Positions 28,798-37,770 of a DNA stretch of 64,000 bases are shown piece after piece. The position numbers were made by a program, and so were the translations under genes. The stretch is from Thermoanaerobaculia bacterium. Lineage in GTDB: Bacteria; Acidobacteriota; Thermoanaerobaculia; Multivoradales; JBCCEF01. Within the stretch, counting starts at the first letter, position 1. Every line of letters begins with the position of its first letter. The stretch spans positions 592 through 64,591 of the forward strand of contig DATACC010000228.1 of NCBI GenBank assembly GCA_036259255.1, given 5' to 3'. The notes beneath the pieces are model-generated. The model saw only the letters and a list, made by a program, of their open reading frames with translations, was not told the origin of the DNA and did not search any database.

Positions 28798-29898
28798 CTA
28801 CGAAGCCAGGCAGCTCTCCAGAGCCTCCGCCACCGTCGAGGCGCTTCCGTAGCGCCGCTCCGGATCCTTCTCGAGGCACCGCAGCACGATCGCTTCCAAC
28901 CGCGGCGGCACCCCCGGCGCGAGCTCGCGCAGGGGGCGGGGCTCGTCCTGGAGGGTCATCGTCAGCATCGCCTCGCGGGTCTCCGCCGCGAAGGGCCGGC
29001 GGCCGGAGGCGAGCTCGTAGAGGGTGGCGCCCAGGCCGTAGACGTCGGTGCGCGCCTCGATGCGCTCCGCCTCGCCCCGCGCCTGCTCCGGAGCCATGTA
29101 GGCCGGCGTGCCGACCACCCCCTGGGTGCGGTACGGCCGGTGACGACGGATCTCCTCGGCGATGCCAAAATCGATCACCAGCACCCGTCGGCGCCCGCCG
29201 GTGCCCGGCACCACCAGCAGGTTGCGGGGGTTGAGGTCGCAGTGGACGATGCCGCGACGGTGGATCTCGGCCACCGTCCGGCAGGCTTCGGCCATCAGCG
29301 CCACCGCCTCGTGCAGGGACAGGTGGGGTCGCTCGTCCTTCAGGGTGCGGGCGCCGGCGTACGGCATGGAGAACCACGGGTGGCGCCCCAGCATCCCCCG
29401 GGCGAGCACCGGCAGCACGCCGGGATGCTCCACTCGGGCCTGTAACCGCGCCTCCCGCAGCGGCTCGGCGGCGTCGCGGGGACCGAGTGGGAACTTGATG
29501 GCCACCTCGCGGCCGGCGCCGTCGACGGCGCGGAACACGCGGCCCATGCCGCCGGCGCCGAGGAGTTGCACGTTGCGGAACACGGACCAGCCGGCGAGCA
29601 GCCGGCCGGAAGGGCCCGGCGGCGGTGAACTGCCGGGCCCGGGGAGGACCTGCGTCGGCTCACCGGGGGCGACGGTGGGCCGCTGGGCCGGCTCCTCCCC
29701 GGGGAGGGACCAGATCACCGTCGGAACGACCGGTGATCCGCCCCAGGGCCGCCCCCAGCCCAGGCCACCGGCCGCCGTCCCCGGGGGGTTGGCGCAGGTG
29801 GCTTGCTGGGCTGGTGACGGTCCTCTCATCCCTCGGCGAAGCCGGTGAGGGGCACGGGCTTCTAGGAGGGAGTGGCGGCCGGGGGCGAAACGTTTCAC
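28798..29898 (-). CDS. Hanks-type Ser/Thr protein kinase with low-complexity Pro-rich N-terminus; start uncertain
   Basis: GAGGMGRVFRA...VAIKF, catalytic loop HCDLNPRNLL, DFGIA, GTPAYMAPE. Confidence 0.8.
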   Translation of the reverse strand: MKRFAPGRHSLLEARAPHRLRRGMRGPSPAQQATCANPPGTAAGGLGWGRPWGGSPVVPTVIWSLPGEEPAQRPTVAPGEPTQVLPGPGSSPPPGPSGRLLAGWSVFRNVQLLGAGGMGRVFRAVDGAGREVAIKFPLGPRDAAEPLREARLQARVEHPGVLPVLARGMLGRHPWFSMPYAGARTLKDERPHLSLHEAVALMAEACRTVAEIHRRGIVHCDLNPRNLLVVPGTGGRRRVLVIDFGIAEEIRRHRPYRTQGVVGTPAYMAPEQARGEAERIEARTDVYGLGATLYELASGRRPFAAETREAMLTMTLQDEPRPLRELAPGVPPRLEAIVLRCLEKDPERRYGSASTVAEALESCLAS

Positions 29899-29920: not shown

Positions 29921-29951
29921 CGAAAAGCGCCCGCCTCCCAAGAAGGCGGGC
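29921..29951 (-). terminator. Rho-independent terminator candidate (GCGCCCGCC-loop-GGCGGGCGC followed by TTTTCG on minus strand)
   Basis: 9-bp perfect stem with 9-nt loop, U-run immediately 3' on the minus strand, just after the 88-aa gene stop. Confidence 0.5.
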
Positions 29952-29977
29952 GCCGAGGGATCCTGTCCGGGGCGGTG

Positions 29978-30244
29978 CTACTCCGAGCTCATCGAGGCGT
30001 CGACCAGGATCCGGATCCAGCAGGATTCGACGTCCAGGACGACCACCAACGCGTCCGGCTCGTCGAACAAGCCAGTCCGGCAGTCGGTGTCGAGGATCGA
30101 GAGCCGGAAGCTGTGGCTGCCGGCGGTGGTGAAGCGCATCCAGGCCCCGGCCGGCAACCACGCCCGGACCGACTTCTCCTCGTTCTCGTCGAAGCCGGTC
30201 TGCTGGAAGTGGATCGGGATCTCGGTTCGGTTGTAGATCTCCAT
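29978..30244 (-). CDS. Hypothetical small protein (88 aa)
   Basis: ATG with G-rich RBS 7 nt upstream; follows 112-aa gene by 17 nt; slightly lower GC than flanks. Confidence 0.45.
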   Translation of the reverse strand: MEIYNRTEIPIHFQQTGFDENEEKSVRAWLPAGAWMRFTTAGSHSFRLSILDTDCRTGLFDEPDALVVVLDVESCWIRILVDASMSSE

Positions 30245-30261
30245 GTCGGTTCCCCCCGGGT

Positions 30262-30600
30262 CTAGGTGCAGGTACCGGTAGCGGTCGGCGCTGGGTTCAC
30301 TTCGACGTCGGGCGGATTGGACCTGAGGTCGCGCACGGTGATCACCGTGGCGGGGTCGGTGAACTGCACCCAGTAGCAGCCCCCGAAATCGTTGGTCACG
30401 ACGGCGATGTAGTCGAAACTTCCCGTCGGAGTGAACATCACCTCCGCAATCGGTGGCAGCGTGCCCCAGATCACGTCGTCCCCGGGGCCGGTGGCCGGAG
30501 GATCCTTGATCAGGGCGAGAAACTCGTCCAGCGTGTGGCCGCCGCCCCCTCCGGTCTGGTTGTAGTCGACGTCGTCTTCGGTCTCGTTGTCGATCTTCAT
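30262..30600 (-). CDS. Hypothetical small acidic protein (112 aa)
   Basis: ATG 30600 with GGGAG RBS; track ORF 30262..30771 overextended. Confidence 0.45.
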   Translation of the reverse strand: MKIDNETEDDVDYNQTGGGGGHTLDEFLALIKDPPATGPGDDVIWGTLPPIAEVMFTPTGSFDYIAVVTNDFGGCYWVQFTDPATVITVRDLRSNPPDVEVNPAPTATGTCT

Positions 30601-30652
30601 CCCGATCTCCCGTTCGAAAAGGAAGGACCCCGGTGCCCTGTCCGGCGATGCC

Positions 30653-33600
30653 TCAGTGCCAGACGCCCTGCAGCGTGAACGGAGCCCAGTAATAGGGAGC
30701 GCTCCAGCGCTCCTCACGAACCATCGAAAGCTGCGCCTCCCGCAGCGCTGCGGCCGGCGGCAGGCCCGCATGGAGGATGCCGCCGTAGAAGCGGGTCATC
30801 ACCTCGGCGGTGGCGCGGTCCTGCACGTCCCACAGGCTCGCCACCACGCGCGCGGCGCCCGCGTACATGAAGCCGCGGGTCAGCCCCACCAGCCCCTCCC
30901 CGCGCACCTCCTGTCCCAGCGCCGTGCTGCAGGCGCTCAGGGTCACCAGGTCGGCGTTGAGATCGAGGCCGTAGATGTCGTGGAGGCGCAGGAAGCCCTC
31001 CGCCGGACGGCCCGCCTCGTCGACCAACGACAGCACCAGCCCGGAGAGCTCCGGCACGTCGCCGTGGAGCACCCCGTGGGTGGCGAAGTGGACGAAGCGG
31101 TAGTCGGCCAGCCGGGGCCCGGTGACCGCCTCGCGGGAGGCGGCGAAGTCGAGGGCCACCAGCCGTTCGGACGGCGGCACCAGCTCGGCGATGCGCTCGC
31201 CCTCCTGGCGCGAGAAGCGCAGCCGCCGGTAGTCGAGGGCCGGGGGCGCCGCCCGGCGCTCGGCCGCGAGTTGCACGCCGCCGCCGGCGCCGGCCTGCTG
31301 CGCGGCGGCGCGCGCCACCCGGGGGTCCGAAGGGTGGAACACCGGATCGGCGAACACCGCCAGCAGGCGGCTGGGCGCGGTGCGCTCGGCCATCTCCTGG
31401 CGCAGCAGCACGGCCACCGAGGCCGACGGCAGGTTGACGATCTCGTGGGAGGCGATCAGCGGCTGCGGACCCGTCCCGCCGCCCGGCGAGGACGGGTCCG
31501 CGAGGGCCGCGAACGGCACCAGGTGCAGGGCGCCGTCGGCGACCACCACCAGGCGGCGGTCGCCGAGACGCCCGGCCGCGGGAGCGAGCACCATCTCCGA
31601 CAGCGCCGCCGCCTCGGCGGCCAGCGCCGCGGCGCCGTCGGCCGTCGGCGCCGCGCTCAGGAGCTGGTGAAAGCGGCGCGCGCGCTGCTCGATGGCGGCG
31701 CGGCCGGGCAGCTCGTAACTGGTCAGCCCGTCGGTGCCGAGCACCCAGAGGAAGCTGCGCTCCTCGGCCAGGCTGTACTCGAGCAGCAGCGTGGCGTCGT
31801 CGGTCAGCACCCGGGTGCGCAGCTCGGCGGCGGACAGCGGCGCCGCGGTCAGCGCCGCCCAGCGCGGATCGGTGAGGCGGATCTCCGACTCCAGGAACTG
31901 CAGGTCGTTCTGCACCCGGCGGATCTCCAACTCCAGGCGCTCGATCTCCGCCGCGCCGCCGGACGGCAACGCCTGCGCCGTCTTGTCCTCGGCGTCGTCG
32001 AGCTCCAGGCGGCGCCGAGCGAGACCGTTGAGCTGGCGCCGCAGACCCTCCTCGCGGCGGGCGAGCTCCGGATCGAGGCCGCGGCGCAGCTCCATGCTGG
32101 CCTCGCCGAGCAGGTCGAGCAGGGTGCGCGCCCGCGCCCGTTCGCTGACCGCCAGCGCCTCGCCGTCCCATCCCGCCGCACCGTCGCGGCGGTGCAGCTC
32201 CATCAGCAGGTCGATCAGCTCCTGGTAGTGCTCCTGGCGGTGGGCGAGGTAGCTGGTGCGCAGCTCCTGGACGGCCACCGCGCGGCGCACCTGTTCGCTG
32301 CGGTCGAGGGCCTCCTCCAGGGTCTCGCGGGCGGCATCGAGGCGCCCCAGGGCGCGCTCCGAGCGGGCCCGCTGCAGCAGGTCGCCGACCACCGTCAGGC
32401 TGCCGGTGCCTTGGCTGAAGGCGAAGGCCGCCGCGAAGTGCTCCAGCGCTTCGGCGTGGCGGCCGCGGCGCGCTTCCACCCGGCCCAGGTAGTGGCGCAG
32501 GCGCGCCACCTGGGGGCGCAGACTCTGGCCCTCGGCGCGGGCCAGGCTCTGGCGCAGGTGCTGCTCGGCGGCGGCCAGGCGGTCGGCTTCGAGCTCCGCC
32601 ACGCCGACGGCGAGCAGCACCTGGATCTCGGCCTGCGGATCGTCGACCCGCTCCAGGGCGGCGAGGGCCCGCTCGAGGTGGGGCAGGGCCTCGGCGGGAC
32701 GGTCGCGCAGCACGAAGGTCCACGCCAGGTTGGACAGCGCCAGCGCCTCGGCGCGGGGGTCGTCGCTCTCGCGGGCCAGCGCCACGCTCTCGGTGAAGAA
32801 GTGCTCCGCCTCGTCGTTCTCGCCCATCAGGTGGTGCAGGTTGCCGATGTTGCTCACCGCCACCGCCTGGGCGCGGCGATTGCCGCTGTCGCGGGCGATC
32901 TCGCGCACCTCGCGGTAGCTGGCGAGGGCCTCCTGCACCCGACCCTGGTACTCGTAGACGGTGCCCAGGTTGTTCAGCGCCCCGGTCAGCACCGAGCGGT
33001 CGCCGTCGGAGCGGGCGATCTCGAGGGCGCGTTCGAAGTGACCGACCGCCTCCTCGACCCGGCCCAGGTGGATCAGCAGCATTCCGAGATTGTTGAGCGA
33101 GAGCGACTCGCCACCCCGGTCCTCCAACGCGCGGTGCAGCTCGATCGCGCGAGCCAGCTCGGCCAGGGCCGCGGGATAGTCGCCGCGGCGGCGGTGGAAG
33201 GTGCCGGCGCTCTGGTAGGCGAAGGCGAGATCGTCGGTGGCGCCGGCGTCCTCGAGCCGCGCCAGGGCCTCGCGGAAGCGGCGGTCGGCCTGCTCGCCGT
33301 CGCCGGCCCGTACCGCCGCGCGGGCGAGGTGGAGCAGCGACTTGCCCTCGCCGGCGGCGTCGCCGGCCTCCCGCCACAGGGCGAGGGCCTCCTCGAAGGC
33401 GGCGGTGGCGGCCTCGGGCTCTTCGAGCACGCTGTAGAGCCGGGCGAGGTCGTGGAGCACCCAGGCCTGTCGCCGCCGATCGCCCAGCTCGCGCCACAGC
33501 GTCGCGGCCTCGCGGTGGGCGGCCACGGCGCGCCGCCGCCGCTCCGGATCGCGGGTGGTCCAGGCGAGCAGGGAGGCTTCGTACTGGGCGCGCTCGGCGG

Positions 33601-34123
33601 CCACCCGGCGCTCGTCGCCCGGGGCGGCGGGGCGCCGCGCCTCGAGACGCAGAAGGTAGCTGCCGGCGCTATCCTCCCCCGCCACCACCTCCAGCCGATG
33701 CAGGCCCGCCGCCCCGGCCAGGTAGGAGAGGGTCTCGGCACCCCACTCCCCGCTGGTGCTGTCGATCTCGGCCGCCGGCATGCCCGCCGCATCGAGCAGC
33801 CGCAGCGACAGGTCGACGCCGCGCTGGTCGACGATCACGCGCAGGAAGTCACCGGCGGCCAGCATCACCGTCCAGGCGTGGGCGGCGGGGCCGGCGATGC
33901 GCCACTCGGCGGCGGCACCGAGGGGCGGCAGCGCCGCCGCCTCGGGTGCGGCGCCGGGGCCCGGCTCGGCCGGGCGTGCGGTCTCGGCTGGGCCGCCTTC
34001 GGGGAGCTCGGCCCGGGGCTGCTTTTCAGCCGTGATCGGGAGGGCGGCCAGCAGGCAGAGCATCGCCGCGGCCAGGAGCGAGCGGAGCGACGGCGGGGGC
34101 TGGAGGCGACCGTGCCGCATCAT
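30653..34123 (-). CDS. Secreted TPR-repeat protein with C-terminal CHAT (caspase-like) protease domain and an N-terminal PPC-like beta domain
   Basis: Signal peptide after MMRHG; many TPR-like AxxxxxAL repeats; CHAT catalytic dyad context FVHFATHG and LVTLSACSTALG; about 1157 aa. Confidence 0.8.
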   Translation of the reverse strand: MMRHGRLQPPPSLRSLLAAAMLCLLAALPITAEKQPRAELPEGGPAETARPAEPGPGAAPEAAALPPLGAAAEWRIAGPAAHAWTVMLAAGDFLRVIVDQRGVDLSLRLLDAAGMPAAEIDSTSGEWGAETLSYLAGAAGLHRLEVVAGEDSAGSYLLRLEARRPAAPGDERRVAAERAQYEASLLAWTTRDPERRRRAVAAHREAATLWRELGDRRRQAWVLHDLARLYSVLEEPEAATAAFEEALALWREAGDAAGEGKSLLHLARAAVRAGDGEQADRRFREALARLEDAGATDDLAFAYQSAGTFHRRRGDYPAALAELARAIELHRALEDRGGESLSLNNLGMLLIHLGRVEEAVGHFERALEIARSDGDRSVLTGALNNLGTVYEYQGRVQEALASYREVREIARDSGNRRAQAVAVSNIGNLHHLMGENDEAEHFFTESVALARESDDPRAEALALSNLAWTFVLRDRPAEALPHLERALAALERVDDPQAEIQVLLAVGVAELEADRLAAAEQHLRQSLARAEGQSLRPQVARLRHYLGRVEARRGRHAEALEHFAAAFAFSQGTGSLTVVGDLLQRARSERALGRLDAARETLEEALDRSEQVRRAVAVQELRTSYLAHRQEHYQELIDLLMELHRRDGAAGWDGEALAVSERARARTLLDLLGEASMELRRGLDPELARREEGLRRQLNGLARRRLELDDAEDKTAQALPSGGAAEIERLELEIRRVQNDLQFLESEIRLTDPRWAALTAAPLSAAELRTRVLTDDATLLLEYSLAEERSFLWVLGTDGLTSYELPGRAAIEQRARRFHQLLSAAPTADGAAALAAEAAALSEMVLAPAAGRLGDRRLVVVADGALHLVPFAALADPSSPGGGTGPQPLIASHEIVNLPSASVAVLLRQEMAERTAPSRLLAVFADPVFHPSDPRVARAAAQQAGAGGGVQLAAERRAAPPALDYRRLRFSRQEGERIAELVPPSERLVALDFAASREAVTGPRLADYRFVHFATHGVLHGDVPELSGLVLSLVDEAGRPAEGFLRLHDIYGLDLNADLVTLSACSTALGQEVRGEGLVGLTRGFMYAGAARVVASLWDVQDRATAEVMTRFYGGILHAGLPPAAALREAQLSMVREERWSAPYYWAPFTLQGVWH

Positions 34124-34219
34124 CGAGACATCCTGCAGGTTACCGAGTGGTCCCCATGCTAGAAGCGAGGGCGGCGCGTGTAAAGCGCGGGAGTCGCGGA
34201 GCAACTCCGCCGGCGGCGC

Positions 34220-35224
34220 TCAGCGCCGCACCGGACCGCGCACGACCTCGATCTCGAAGGCGCCCACCAGCTCGGCGCGGTCGCCGTCGGCGAGGCCCTC
34301 GACCAGCACCTCGTGGCGGCCGGCGACCAGTGCCTCGGCCGGTACGGTGACCGCGACCACCGGTCCGGCGTCGGTGGCTGTCTGTTCGGCGCCGGTGCGG
34401 CTCCACACCTCGCTGCCGGTGGGGCCGAGCAGGCGCACCCGGTAGGCGGGGTAGCCCTCGTCGCCGCCGGTGTCGAGCTGGAGGTGCACCAGCTCGGCCT
34501 GCGGCGGCACCGCCAGCTCGCGGACGCCCCGATCCGAGCGGGTGGCGAGGGCCAGCAGGAAGCTCACCGCGACCGGCTCGCTGGCGGCAGCCTCCGTCTC
34601 CAGCCGGGCCAGCTCGGCAGCCAGGTGGTCGGCGCGCTGGCGCACGGCGGCGAGCTCGGAGACGGTGCCGGCAGCGGGCTCCTCGGCGTCTTCGCCTCCG
34701 GAGTCGGCGGCGGCTCGACGAGCCTCGGCGAGCTGGCGTTCCAGCGCGGCGATCTCGGCCTCCTGGGCCTCCGCAGCCGCCTGCTCGGCCTGCATCGTCT
34801 CCACCCGCTCCTCGAGCTGCGCGGCGCGCCAGCCGAGCCAGCCGGTGAGCGCCACCAGCACGACGAAGGCGCTCGCGGCGGCGAGGCGCAGGGCCGGGCG
34901 GGGGAGCCAGCCGAAGACGCGCCGCGCCGGCCGGGGAGCATTGCGCGCCGCGTGGCGCGCCTCTTCGGCCAGGACCCGGGCGAAGGCGATCCGCTCACCC
35001 ATGCCCTCGCGGCCGAGGTGGCGCGCGGCGAATTCGGCGTGGTCGCGGCGGTCCAGATCGCCCCGGGCGTACTCCTCGATCAGCTCGTCCTCGGCGGCGA
35101 GCACGGCCTCGTAGGCGTCGTCGTCGGCCAGGAGCCCGGCCTCGAAGCGATCGCGCTCCCGATCGTCGAGCCTACCCAGCAGGTAGCGGCGGGCCTGGTC
35201 GTGGCGGCTGTCGAGTGTGCTCAT
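34220..35224 (-). CDS. Putative anti-sigma factor (single TM, coiled-coil, C-terminal periplasmic domain)
   Basis: Immediately downstream of ECF sigma; TM segment ALRLAAASAFVVLVALTGWLGW; Ala/Glu-rich coiled coil. Confidence 0.55.
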   Translation of the reverse strand: MSTLDSRHDQARRYLLGRLDDRERDRFEAGLLADDDAYEAVLAAEDELIEEYARGDLDRRDHAEFAARHLGREGMGERIAFARVLAEEARHAARNAPRPARRVFGWLPRPALRLAAASAFVVLVALTGWLGWRAAQLEERVETMQAEQAAAEAQEAEIAALERQLAEARRAAADSGGEDAEEPAAGTVSELAAVRQRADHLAAELARLETEAAASEPVAVSFLLALATRSDRGVRELAVPPQAELVHLQLDTGGDEGYPAYRVRLLGPTGSEVWSRTGAEQTATDAGPVVAVTVPAEALVAGRHEVLVEGLADGDRAELVGAFEIEVVRGPVRR

Positions 35225-35294
35225 CGCGATCGTCTCCCTCGGTTGGCGCCGGACCCATCCCGACTTCCACCCTGGAGTGACGTGGCCGTTGAAT

Positions 35295-35909
35295 TCATTT
35301 CACATCGACGCACTGTCGCACGCAGTCTTCCAGCTTCGCGCGCAGGCGATGGGCGCGGATGCGGAGTGCGTTGATCGGCACGCCGAGGTCGTCCGCCAGG
35401 CGCTTGCGGTTCTCGATGCGGGCCCCGCCCTCGCCGCTGTGGTAGCGCAGCAGCAGGTCGCGCTGCCGCGGGTGGAGCTCGCCGAGGCACTGCTGCAGAC
35501 AACGCATGCGCTCGTCGTCGGAATCGTCGGGTTCGGGCTCGCGCACTTCGCGCCCCATCTCGGCGACGGCCGCTTCCTGCCGCTTCTGGTCGCGCAGGAG
35601 CTCCTTGAACACGAGATAGGCGACGCTGCAGGCGTAGCGGAAGGGGTCCTCGGTGCGCAACTCCAGCCCGCCGGCGGCCTTGTGGGCCACCCGGTTCATG
35701 GTTTCGTCGACCAGCTCGTCGGGGCGCGGGCAGCCGCGCCATTCGAACAGGCGCAGCAGCTTGGCGCGAATGCGCTCGTACTCCCGCGCCGCGGTGTCGC
35801 GGTCGGGACCGAGGAGGTCGAGAAGCCCGGCGAGGGCGTCGGGGGTCAACGCCCACCGCTCGCCCCGGGCCGCGCCGCCCCCGCGGCTGGTGGACTCGTG
35901 AGTCGCCAT
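35295..35909 (-). CDS. ECF (sigma-70 family group IV) RNA polymerase sigma factor
   Basis: Region 2-like FEWRGCP...DELVDETMNRV and region 4 HTH RRLADDLGVPINALRIRAHRLRAKL. Confidence 0.8.
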   Translation of the reverse strand: MATHESTSRGGGAARGERWALTPDALAGLLDLLGPDRDTAAREYERIRAKLLRLFEWRGCPRPDELVDETMNRVAHKAAGGLELRTEDPFRYACSVAYLVFKELLRDQKRQEAAVAEMGREVREPEPDDSDDERMRCLQQCLGELHPRQRDLLLRYHSGEGGARIENRKRLADDLGVPINALRIRAHRLRAKLEDCVRQCVDVK

Positions 35910-35989
35910 GTCGATTACGCAGACATTGTAACCGCCTCCGGCACGGACCGGGAGCCGGGGCCGGTGTGCAGGTGGGTAAGATCGTGGCG

Positions 35990-37117
35990 ATGAGCCCCCC
36001 GCGGGTGCGCCGCATCCTGCACTGCGATATGGACTGCTTCTACGCCGCGGTCCACATGCGCGACGACCCGTCGCTGGCCGGCCGCCCGGTGGTGATCGGC
36101 GGCGATCCGGGTGGGCGCGGCGTGGTGGCGGCGGCGAGCTACGAGGTACGCCGCTTCGGCGTGCGCTCGGCGATGCCGGCGGCGGAGGCGCGCCGGCGTT
36201 GCCCCGAGGCGGTGTTCCTACGCCCGGACTTCCCGCGCTACCGCCGGGAATCGCAGGCGATCTTCGCCATCCTGCGCGAGCTGACGCCGCGGGTGCAGGC
36301 GGTGTCCATCGACGAGGGCTATCTCGACGTCACCGACCACCTCGAGCCCTTCGGCAGCGCCACGGCGGTGGCCCACGAGGTCCGTCGGCGGGTGCGCGAG
36401 GAGCGCGGCTTGACGGTGAGTGTCGGCGTGGCGCCCAACAAGCTGGTGGCCAAGATCGCCTCGGACCACGGCAAGCCGGACGGCCTCACCGTGGTGCGTC
36501 CCGGCGAGGTGGCGGCCTTCCTGGCCCCGCTGCCGGTGCGGCGCCTGCACGGGGTGGGCCCCGCCACCGAGCGGGCGCTGGCGGACCTCGGCGTGACCCG
36601 GGTCGCCGAGCTGCGCCGCCTGCCGGCCGACGTGCTCACCGCCCGCTTCGGCAGCCACGGCCGGCTGCTGTGGGAGTACGCCCGGGGCCTCGACGCCCGC
36701 GAGGTGGAGACCGCCACGGAGCGCAAGAGCCTCGGCACCGAGAACACCTACGAGCGCGATCTCACCCGCCGCGCCGAGATGGAGGCCGAGCTGGTGCGCA
36801 TGGCCGAGGAGGTGGCCGGTGGCCTGGTGCGGCGCGAGATCGCCGGCCGCACGGTGACGCTGAAGGTGCGCTACTCGGACTTCACCACCATCACCCGCTC
36901 GCGCACCCTCGCCTCGCCGACCGCGGCGGCGGCGGAGATCGGCACCCACGCCCGCGACCTGCTGGCCCGCACCGACGCGGCGCGGCGGCCGGTGCGGCTG
37001 CTCGGGGTGACGATGTCGAATCTGGCCACGGGGGAGGGCGAGCAGCTCGTGCTGCCGCTGGCGCCGCCGGCCGGCTTCGCGGGTGATAGCCTGCCCCCGA
37101 AGGAGGCGAGCCGATGA
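35990..37117 (+). CDS. dinB: DNA polymerase IV (Y-family)
   Basis: ILHCDMDCFYAAVHMRDDPSLAGRPVVIGG, SIDEGYLD motifs; 375 aa. Confidence 0.9.
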   Translation: MSPPRVRRILHCDMDCFYAAVHMRDDPSLAGRPVVIGGDPGGRGVVAAASYEVRRFGVRSAMPAAEARRRCPEAVFLRPDFPRYRRESQAIFAILRELTPRVQAVSIDEGYLDVTDHLEPFGSATAVAHEVRRRVREERGLTVSVGVAPNKLVAKIASDHGKPDGLTVVRPGEVAAFLAPLPVRRLHGVGPATERALADLGVTRVAELRRLPADVLTARFGSHGRLLWEYARGLDAREVETATERKSLGTENTYERDLTRRAEMEAELVRMAEEVAGGLVRREIAGRTVTLKVRYSDFTTITRSRTLASPTAAAAEIGTHARDLLARTDAARRPVRLLGVTMSNLATGEGEQLVLPLAPPAGFAGDSLPPKEASR

Positions 37118-37770
37118 ACGGTCCCCGCACGATCCACTCCGCAGGCCATCCCGAGCCCCGAGCCACCCGGTCCACCGCCAGCGCCCCGTCGCGCGCCACC
37201 TCCGAAGAGCGCTCCACCACCGGGGAGCTGATCGCGCGGTTGCGCTCGGCGGTGCGGCTGGACGAGGAAGCGGCCATCGCCCATCGCATCGAGGAGGATC
37301 TGACGGAGCTGATCGAGGCCGGTCTGGAACTGCCCGAGCCGCTCACCCGTCCGCTTCCCGACACCTACGCGCGGCGCCTGCTCCACCGCGAGCCGGACGG
37401 TAGCTTCTCGGTGGTGGTGATGACCTGGGGAGCGGGGCAGCGCACGCCGATCCACGACCATGCCGGCATCTGGTGCGTCGAAGGCGTGGTCGACGGGCGC
37501 ATGCGGGTGGAGCGCTTCGAGCTGGTCGACGAGGAGCCCGGCGGCCGTTGCCGCTTCGCCGAGCGCGGCGCGGAGACGGCCGGAGTCGGCTCCTCCGGCG
37601 CCCTGATCCCGCCCTTCGAGTACCACGTGCTGGCCAACGCGCTGGACGATCGACGCTCCGTGACCCTGCACGTCTACGGTGGCGACATGGACCACTGCTG
37701 CACCTTCGAGCCGGCCGCCGACGGCCACTGGCAGCGGCGCGAGCACCGGCTCTCCTTCCACGACGACTAG
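37114..37770 (+). CDS. Cysteine dioxygenase type I family cupin (low-complexity N-terminal 45 aa)
   Basis: VMTWGAGQRTPIHDHAGIWCVEGVVDGRMRVERFE cupin metal site; ATG overlaps dinB stop (ATGA). Confidence 0.65.
   Translation: MNGPRTIHSAGHPEPRATRSTASAPSRATSEERSTTGELIARLRSAVRLDEEAAIAHRIEEDLTELIEAGLELPEPLTRPLPDTYARRLLHREPDGSFSVVVMTWGAGQRTPIHDHAGIWCVEGVVDGRMRVERFELVDEEPGGRCRFAERGAETAGVGSSGALIPPFEYHVLANALDDRRSVTLHVYGGDMDHCCTFEPAADGHWQRREHRLSFHDD

Follow-up and report, generated by a model that had tools for sequence, protein, structure and literature searches.

A putative transmembrane signalling module of Acidobacteriota combines an ECF-type sigma factor and its anti-sigma factor with an exported TPR-CHAT protein

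The locus described here lies on the minus strand of a 64,000-nucleotide stretch of contig DATACC010000228.1 (the window), which comes from a metagenome-assembled Thermoanaerobaculia genome (Acidobacteriota) with a GC content of ~74%. It encodes a divergent sigma factor of the extracytoplasmic function (ECF) type, a membrane anti-sigma factor, an exported protein with tetratricopeptide repeats (TPR) and a C-terminal CHAT protease domain, and two small beta-sandwich proteins, and we interpret it as a transmembrane signalling module. In our preferred reading, to which we assign a probability of about 0.45, the exported CHAT protein would cut the anti-sigma factor in trans and start the release of the sigma factor. 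This reading builds on the gene content and domain identities of the locus, an intact catalytic dyad, the signals for export and the finding that sigma, anti-sigma and CHAT genes occur together across the phylum, and it extends them by analogy to cleavage partners, a signal, a regulon and a role for the small proteins. An earlier note on this DNA had placed five open reading frames (ORFs) and a hairpin on this strand; all of them are found at their positions, and its general frame, an extracytoplasmic proteolytic signalling module, also proves apt. The core features are the following (window coordinates; aa, amino acids; AF2, AlphaFold2).

35295-35909, minus strand: divergent ECF-type sigma factor, 204 aa (ECF model matches below cut-off)
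34220-35224, minus strand: single-pass anti-sigma factor, 334 aa (AF2 model, weak zf-HC2 matches in homologues, position after the sigma gene)
34829-34897, minus strand: codons of the anti-sigma transmembrane (TM) helix, about residues 110-132 (hydrophobic segment, AF2)
34538-34540, minus strand: codon of anti-sigma Arg229, a candidate cleavage or recognition site (R in 77/77 homologues)
30653-34123, minus strand: exported protein with PPC-like, TPR and CHAT regions, 1156 aa (Pfam, catalytic dyad, N-terminal pattern)
31076-31078, minus strand: codon of CHAT catalytic H1016 (invariant in 63/63 homologues)
30929-30931, minus strand: codon of CHAT catalytic C1065 (invariant in 63/63 homologues)
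30262-30600, minus strand: small protein 1, 112 aa, of a new beta-sandwich family (AF2 model, relatives found by profile)
29978-30244, minus strand: small protein 2, 88 aa, a paralogue that has diverged from small protein 1 (BLASTP, third-position GC content)

In mechanistic terms, the anti-sigma factor would keep the sigma factor inactive at the inner membrane, and the exported protein, through its TPR and PPC-like regions, would sense an envelope or extracellular cue or would bind the anti-sigma factor. The CHAT domain would then cut the periplasmic portion of the anti-sigma factor, with a candidate site beside Arg229. As the site-1 step, such a cut would open the way to intramembrane proteolysis and to release of the sigma factor, and the module would represent a split, trans-acting counterpart of DdvA from Myxococcus xanthus.

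The CHAT domain (PF12770) occupies about residues 837-1153 of the exported protein and matches profile positions 3-288 of 289 with 221.4 bits, against a gathering cut-off of 24 (E 2.2e-65); TPR_12 matches at seven stretches. Both motifs that had been proposed to hold the catalytic residues, FVHFATHG and LSACSTALG, are present, and the residues themselves, H1016 (in ATHG) and C1065 (in SAC), are invariant in all 63 sigma-linked CHAT domains that we aligned. A PDB sequence search with the CHAT domain retrieved only separase (E 0.003), and a PDB profile search returned nothing. In the separase alignment, C1065 coincides with the Cys of the GCS motif, which is the catalytic Cys of separase. The predicted catalytic dyad is intact.

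Charge and hydrophobicity patterns predict a signal peptide within residues 1-33 of this protein (MMRHGRLQPPPSLRSLLAAAMLCLLAALPITA, then EK), and almost all CHAT homologues have signal-peptide-like or lipobox-like N-termini, many with L-x-G/A-C. The TPR-CHAT protein is thus predicted to reside outside the cytoplasm, and because of these N-termini we expect it to share a compartment with the periplasmic part of the anti-sigma factor. The description of an exported TPR-CHAT protein given in the earlier note stands, with its length corrected from 1157 to 1156 aa, counted from the first ATG. As to the PPC-like N-terminal domain that it had also proposed, a Pfam search did not match PPC (PF04151) in the window protein, whereas PF04151 gives sub-threshold matches at the equivalent position in 7 of 10 homologous N-domains.

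For the anti-sigma factor, AF2 predicts a cytoplasmic helical bundle, one TM helix, a periplasmic coiled coil and a C-terminal immunoglobulin-like (Ig-like) beta-sandwich, with a predicted local distance difference test score (pLDDT) of about 90 in both the N-terminal bundle and the C-terminal sandwich. Fold matches of the model are FN3/Ig-like domains. The bundle helices span residues 2-15, 21-33, 35-54, 59-69 and 75-95; the next helix starts at residue 110 and includes the hydrophobic segment 110-132, with basic residues ahead of it. A bundle followed by a single TM helix is the domain layout of Class I anti-sigma factors. The window protein has no Pfam match, and zf-HC2 was not found in it at E values up to 1, whereas 7 of 10 homologues match zf-HC2 weakly (best E 5e-5). 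The H-x3-C-x2-C zinc motif does not occur in the protein, and residues 1-105 contain no Cys at all, so this is not a zinc anti-sigma factor; it would at best be a degenerate, non-zinc relative of the zf-HC2 or zinc-binding anti-sigma (ZAS) type.

The periplasmic part of the anti-sigma factor comprises a predicted ~200 residues, among which Arg229 alone is invariant (77 of 77 homologues). This residue belongs to the motif h-h-L-x-[PL]-[GA]-x-x-R-[GSD] and is located at the junction between the coiled coil and the Ig-like domain, within a short segment (residues 228-231) where pLDDT falls below 50.

The sigma factor had been called an ECF sigma factor; the protein is divergent, and its matches to ECF models are significant but score below curated cut-offs. 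TIGR02989 matches residues 85-197 (E 6e-12) with 45.8 bits against a curated cut-off of 124.6, the sigma70-ECF model TIGR02937 matches residues 63-195 (E 1e-8) with 35.1 bits against 42.9, and Sigma70_r4_2 reaches 21.3 bits against 25.7; Sigma70_r2 had no match in the Pfam search. The same pattern, significant yet under threshold, holds for all seven sigma orthologues compared with ECF models. PDB sequence and profile searches retrieved no sigma factor, and hhalign against an approximate Escherichia coli RpoE sequence aligned region 4.2 alone (E 0.095). The size of 204 aa and the presence of a single-pass membrane protein downstream in 75+ loci fit a two-domain ECF sigma factor (group IV), and in orthologues at 52-80% identity the anti-sigma gene is always next. 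Region 4 contains a conserved cysteine pattern, C-x3-C ... C-x3-C, with C141 and C196 present in 87/87 sequences and C137 and C200 in 71/87; the sigma factor itself could have a metal or redox site here. One sigma orthologue weakly matches NF041236, the NCBIfam model of the RpoE-like sigma factor associated with type III-E CRISPR (clustered regularly interspaced short palindromic repeats) systems (E 3.3e-5), which hints at a distant kinship of two CHAT-linked sigma groups.

To place the locus in a wider context, we scanned a sigma alignment over one genome per GTDB species, which yielded 79 loci with 82 sigma genes, and searched the six-frame ORFs of these loci with profiles built from the window proteins. 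Nearly all of the loci come from Acidobacteriota-like metagenome-assembled genomes (Thermoanaerobaculia, Holophagales, Blastocatellia, Pyrinomonadaceae, Chloracidobacterium and Terriglobales). A TPR-CHAT gene lies within 6 kb of 70 of the 82 sigma genes and, in the long-flank subset (4 kb or more upstream and 5.5 kb or more downstream), of 45 of 49, which confirms the linkage of sigma factor, anti-sigma factor and exported TPR-CHAT protein noticed earlier. Most often the genes run CHAT>sigma>anti-sigma on a single strand; in a few loci CHAT is downstream or divergent. Because this arrangement recurs in dozens of independent genomes, it is far beyond chance. In the related loci that we inspected, anti-sigma and CHAT matches fall in separate ORFs; in the window, too, each has a gene of its own, and 96 nt lie between the stop codon of the anti-sigma gene and the start of the CHAT gene. 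Two sigma/anti-sigma/CHAT modules stand in tandem, within about 10 kb, at three loci (L034, L046 and L070), which points to paralogous expansion in some Pyrinomonadaceae genomes.

The closer relatives of the window locus vary in what accompanies the sigma/anti-sigma pair. Among metagenome homologues of the anti-sigma factor, the two genes form a fixed pair beside dinB and the downstream genes differ: TPR-CHAT in L005 and L008, a kinase and PspA in L004 and L007, and cytochrome c peroxidase in L003. A neighbour-joining sigma tree groups the window, L009, L014, L008/L012 and L023 in one clade with L003, L004, L006 and L007. The ancestral order in this clade is sigma>anti-sigma>CHAT>small(1-3)>kinase. 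Independent metagenome contigs obtained through homologues of the small proteins show it again: L009 and L090 repeat the window arrangement exactly, including the flanking dinB and, at the opposite end, fumarase, and L092 repeats the stretch from anti-sigma factor to kinase. The L003/L004/L007 subclade has neither CHAT nor small genes, and these appear to have been lost together; the L006 contig ends too soon after the anti-sigma gene to judge.

The arrangement most closely resembles the DdvS-DdvA system. M. xanthus DdvA is an anti-sigma factor with a fused periplasmic TPR-CHAT region, for which self-cleavage has been proposed as the site-1 step (PMC11506125), and this fused architecture has been reported only in Myxococcota and one Comamonas (PMC11506125). 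Both systems combine an ECF-type sigma factor, a membrane-spanning anti-sigma factor plus TPR-CHAT outside the cytoplasm, and in both CHAT proteolysis is the proposed site-1 step. DdvA is a single polypeptide, whereas here TPR-CHAT is a separate protein with its own signal peptide and an extra PPC-like N-domain. The anti-sigma N-domain also differs, since it contains no Cys and hence no CHCC zinc site, and its periplasmic part consists of a coiled coil and an Ig-like domain. Finally, the split form is widespread in Acidobacteriota, has no attached defence island and is accompanied by small beta-sandwich proteins. PDB searches detected no similarity to any solved TPR-CHAT anti-sigma factor, their only match being separase. 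By analogy, the module may work like DdvA-DdvS but outside that architecture.

Craspase provides a second precedent. There the TPR-CHAT protease Csx29 cleaves the anti-sigma-like protein Csx30 and frees an ECF-type sigma factor (PMC10028731), so that a TPR-CHAT protease and an ECF-type sigma factor are genetically linked, as in our locus, and in Craspase the protease cleaves the sigma inhibitor. Craspase (Cas7-11, Csx29, Csx30, Csx31 and CASP-sigma) is cytoplasmic and RNA-activated, with the protease bound to Cas7-11 and a soluble Csx30, whereas the protease here carries an export signal and the sigma inhibitor is a membrane protein.

The design also recalls the regulated intramembrane proteolysis of RseA (by DegS and RseP) and RsiW (by PrsW), in which a single-pass anti-sigma factor has an extracytoplasmic portion and a dedicated extracytoplasmic protease makes the first cut, a step that is only proposed for our locus. 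The proposed site-1 protease differs in being a clan CD, caspase-like CHAT protein with a long TPR array rather than a serine protease or metalloprotease, and in being encoded beside the sigma factor; the locus contains no site-2 protease gene. Among ECF groups, the actinobacterial ECF54 is found next to genes for carboxypeptidase, subtilase or CHAT proteins and reportedly has no anti-sigma factor (PMC8999054). It resembles the present family in the conserved context of a CHAT protein and in the proteolytic control proposed for it; the family described here differs in belonging to Acidobacteriota and in always having an anti-sigma factor. Full-text literature searches on CHAT with ECF, sigma factor and Acidobacteria found no description of the split sigma/anti-sigma/CHAT module. 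CHAT is not mentioned in the main text of the paper that reclassified the ECF groups; this context may already be annotated under an ECF group.

Both small ORFs are true genes, and the family they belong to carries no annotation. The third-position GC bias typical of genuine genes of this genome is found in all coding frames of the cluster, and third-position GC content is 0.86 in small ORF 1 and 0.97 in small ORF 2. Both ORFs are preceded by G-rich, Shine-Dalgarno-like stretches (GGGAGA and GGGGGGAA). The earlier note had named their absence from relatives as one ground for refuting its proposal, and they are present there. A word-indexed search of 5.8 billion proteins with the small ORFs returned only the queries themselves and a single homologue at 46% identity; an exhaustive profile search found about a dozen family proteins of 85-101 aa, which gives the family a size range of 85-112 aa, and ORF2-type orthologues are P0022 and P0024. 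When the profile was iterated over the collected loci, a small member was found directly 3' of the anti-sigma gene in at least 16 CHAT>sigma>anti-sigma loci of Thermoanaerobaculia and Holophagales. The number of copies per locus ranges from one to three, and a CHAT gene is found at all 17 GTDB loci that carry a small gene. No family member was detected in the Blastocatellia and Pyrinomonadaceae loci.

The AF2 model of small protein 1 (pLDDT 86, predicted template modelling score 0.79) is an all-beta sandwich of nine strands and one helix. Both small proteins have an acidic N-terminus (MKIDNETEDD and MEIYNRTE) and start with a beta-strand; because this first strand of the fold begins at residue 2, the proteins have no signal peptide or cleavable leader and should be cytoplasmic. 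They are weak paralogues of one another (BLASTP E 1e-3) with a common N-terminal M-x-[IV]-x-N-x-T ... Q-T-G, which generalizes across the family to M-x-[IV]-x-N-x-[TS] ... Q-x-G-G-G. Six positions do not vary (N5, T7, Q15, G17, F56 and G60), none of them basic or acidic. Neither protein has a Pfam, NCBIfam or PADLOC family match, and a Foldseek search of the model against the PDB gave only non-significant sandwich matches, the best being IglE/TssJ (E 0.03, TM-score about 0.5). The conserved N-terminal 20 residues, ending in GGGG, would also suit a leader-plus-core precursor of the type seen in ribosomally synthesized and post-translationally modified peptides; this candidate was ruled out, as the N-terminus is the first beta-hairpin of a confident globular fold. 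At two loci, a different Gly-rich ORF of about 58 aa (MPRKYESSGTEPDDGSIRVGTGGGGGG...KGGAKSSKGA) lies 3' of the anti-sigma gene, in the usual place of the beta-sandwich gene (L026:11669-11842 and L042:11674-11850, plus strand).

The earlier note suggested that the small proteins are substrates of the protease, and in that case their cleavage products might act as signals or effectors. Such a role would agree with their strict co-occurrence with CHAT (17/17), with the direct adjacency of the small genes to the CHAT gene and with their rapid divergence, the small proteins being 42-46% identical to those of the closest relative, compared with 70-95% for the products of adjoining genes. We nevertheless consider it improbable. 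The small proteins lack a signal peptide, their N-terminal strand being part of the fold, and the protease has an export signal, which places the two in different compartments; the family offers no invariant basic or acidic residue that could mark a cleavage site; and the small genes are missing from most CHAT-linked loci. The periplasmic portion of the anti-sigma factor is a better placed candidate substrate.

Staphostatins are cytoplasmic beta-barrel inhibitors that are encoded beside the secreted cysteine proteases they inhibit, the staphopains. By analogy, the small proteins might be a dedicated partner of the CHAT protease, for instance a cytoplasmic inhibitor or chaperone, a possibility that we hold with the odds against it. 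It would fit their CHAT-dependent occurrence, apparent joint loss with CHAT, lack of an export signal and fast divergence. The likeness lies in small all-beta proteins without a signal peptide that are encoded beside a secreted cysteine protease and only where that protease is present; the differences are the lack of a fold match and the frequent position of the small gene 3' of the anti-sigma gene rather than of the protease gene. A strict genomic tie to a protease and a confident predicted fold make this unannotated family of interest, as its role could show how bacteria restrain such proteases.

The transcription signals of the locus bear on how these genes are expressed together. The relevant features, with the gene that follows them, are listed below.

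35925-35930, minus strand: -10-like box TACAAT, 15 nt 5' of the sigma ATG, with a putative function (box kept in 5/5 orthologous upstream regions)
34156-34184, minus strand: sigma-70-like promoter candidate TTTACA-17-TAGCAT, before the CHAT gene (motif scan, kept in L005)
29922-29954, minus strand: intrinsic-terminator-like hairpin, 13-bp stem then UUUUC (folding, recurrence in relatives)
28798-29829, minus strand: soluble Ser/Thr protein kinase, 343 aa (Pkinase E 3e-34)

The TTTACA-17-TAGCAT site (34184-34156), between the anti-sigma stop and the CHAT start, is the sole promoter-like site in 8 kb, where 0.1 would be expected; both hexamers are identical in L005, the closest relative, with diverged flanks. 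Ahead of the sigma gene, a -10-like box, GGTATGAT / GGTTACAAT (TACAAT/TATGAT), lies 10-15 nt 5' of the ATG in each of the five orthologous regions aligned, a spacing that suggests a sigma transcript with a very short leader. No ECF-type autoregulatory promoter common to the sigma and CHAT upstream regions was found, only -10-like boxes of the TAnnAT type. The hairpin after the small genes has a 13-bp GC stem, and its 76-nt context folds at -43.9 kcal/mol (z = -2.35). Its U-tract of 4 U falls under the 5-U rule of the terminator scanner; a GC hairpin with a U-tract at the end of a string of genes nonetheless has the make-up of an intrinsic terminator. The terminator proposed earlier also recurs: four of five relatives (L002, L009, L014 and L092) have a strong hairpin at the equivalent place behind their last small gene, with a different stem sequence in L009, L014 and L092. 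Because promoter-like sites precede the sigma and CHAT genes and a hairpin follows the small genes, three units are the likeliest layout: sigma/anti-sigma, CHAT/small genes and the kinase, which is probably transcribed separately. The single operon originally proposed is therefore doubtful, given the conserved promoter-like site before CHAT and the relatives that have sigma and anti-sigma genes without CHAT.

A different upstream element is conserved in Thermoanaerobaculia loci of the order CHAT>sigma>anti-sigma>small (L015, L017, L018, L020, L022, L024, L025, L032, L036 and others). There a GACGATAAAAT / ACGGTAGAAT box lies about 95-110 nt 5' of the CHAT start and is followed by a conserved leader that ends in ...GCCGCCCAGACAGAAGAACGAATG. 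Box and leader are possibly a promoter with a regulatory 5' untranslated region.

Several of these observations weigh against our preferred reading, in which the CHAT protein would cut the anti-sigma factor. Cleavage is proposed by analogy; no similarity to DdvA was detected by sequence, PDB searches with the CHAT domain having returned separase only; and Arg229 as the cleavage site is only a guess, as CHAT proteases vary in specificity. The promoter-like elements before the CHAT and sigma genes are of the housekeeping (TAnnAT) type and not of the ECF type. Many CHAT-linked loci, mostly from Blastocatellia and Pyrinomonadaceae, have no detectable small gene, and neither staphostatin nor chagasin is among the top 50 Foldseek PDB matches of the small protein, which speaks against an inhibitor role. 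Finally, L003, L004 and L007 have sigma and anti-sigma genes without an adjacent CHAT gene, and the pair can evidently work, or be regulated, without CHAT in some relatives.

This last point leads to the main rival explanation, in which TPR-CHAT is an output of the system: the sigma/anti-sigma pair would sense a cue alone and switch on a protease for other envelope or extracellular proteins, with the small proteins as accessories. ECF operons often carry effector genes beside the sigma gene, and in the clade of the window a promoter-like site and a terminator delimit a cassette that is made up of CHAT and the small genes. We consider this explanation rather unlikely. The promoter-like sites before CHAT are of the housekeeping type and have no recognizable ECF-type motif in common with the sigma promoter; CHAT comes first in a CHAT>sigma>anti-sigma string in most loci, a better fit for a co-expressed partner than for a target; and two precedents tie TPR-CHAT to anti-sigma cleavage.

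An extended form of the cleavage reading can be put forward only tentatively, with odds well below even. The standalone, exported TPR-CHAT protein would act as a trans site-1 protease that cuts at the invariant Arg, the split design, conserved across Acidobacteriota, would be commoner in nature than the fused DdvA, and the small proteins would be inhibitors or chaperones of the protease in one large clade. Caspase-like CHAT proteases have recently been linked to sigma-factor control in two particular settings, Myxococcus (DdvA) and type III-E CRISPR (Craspase). The pairing of TPR-CHAT with an ECF-type sigma factor and an anti-sigma factor described here suggests a signalling design that is widespread and inherited vertically in a major phylum of soil bacteria. 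The split form should also be easier to dissect than the fused one, as the protease and its proposed substrate are distinct proteins and only one candidate site is invariant.

The kinase gene offers another route of control. It follows the module in L002, L009, L014, L090 and L092 and stands directly after the anti-sigma gene in L004 and L007. If the sigma factor were controlled mainly by phosphorylation through this adjoining Ser/Thr kinase, as in ECF43-type systems, CHAT would be unrelated to its regulation. A soluble kinase after the module throughout the clade of the window, its persistence beside the anti-sigma gene where CHAT is absent (L004 and L007) and the recurrence of kinases in two other clades (L031 and L088) would fit such control. 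It seems very unlikely to us, since kinase-regulated ECF groups are described as having no anti-sigma factor (PMC8999054), which is always present here even where a kinase adjoins. Moreover, most loci of the family have no kinase and about 90% have CHAT, and a terminator separates the kinase from the CHAT/small cassette.

On its other flank, the sigma gene is divergent from a DinB/IMS translesion polymerase gene (35966-37117, plus strand), with 56 nt between the start codons, and a cysteine dioxygenase-like cupin gene follows beyond dinB (37114-37770, plus strand). The divergent dinB-sigma pairing is kept in L003, L006, L009 and L090. The flanking genes are housekeeping genes that are syntenic across genomes (dinB, fumarase, carB, TauE and thymidine kinase), and we conclude that the module belongs to the vertically inherited core genome rather than to a mobile island. 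Housekeeping genes alone were returned when we searched for further conserved neighbours as regulon candidates.

This setting also bears on a possible role in anti-phage defence or conflict. As in DdvS-DdvA or Craspase, a periplasmic TPR-CHAT protein might detect a phage component and the sigma factor might turn on defence genes. DdvA-DdvS controls an island of CRISPR and CBASS (cyclic oligonucleotide-based anti-phage signalling system) genes in M. xanthus; the weak match of one sigma homologue to the type III-E CRISPR-associated sigma model (E 3.3e-5), the fast evolution and variable copy number of the small proteins, and the tandem paralogous modules at L034, L046 and L070 are in line with such a role. 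It is highly doubtful nonetheless, as the housekeeping flanks and syntenic position point to vertical core-genome inheritance, PADLOC yields only generic TPR and kinase matches, and no cas or CBASS genes occur among the neighbour annotations examined. Within the window itself, no cas genes were found in the annotated parts (no dedicated CRISPR-array search was made).

Three further features were observed near these modules or elsewhere in the window. In 12 loci, a clostripain-family protein (Peptidase_C11, also of clan CD) is encoded near the module, about 5 kb upstream of the sigma gene (for example L051:14508-16781, minus strand). In the CHAT-less relative L004 (L004:10423-11817, minus strand), a TIR_2-domain protein and an AAA protein are encoded a few kb downstream of the sigma/anti-sigma/kinase/PspA genes. 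In the window, a low-GC island at 16199-19567 (plus strand) directly follows carB and has about 56-57% GC, against ~74% for the genome. The low-GC stretch at 16-20 kb was ruled out as an rRNA operon, with zero Rfam matches over the whole window. The island encodes a 753-aa ORF without a Pfam match and a 367-aa N6/N4 DNA methyltransferase (PF01555, E 7.5e-15, SPPY motif), and probably represents a restriction-modification-like or defence cassette gained by horizontal transfer.

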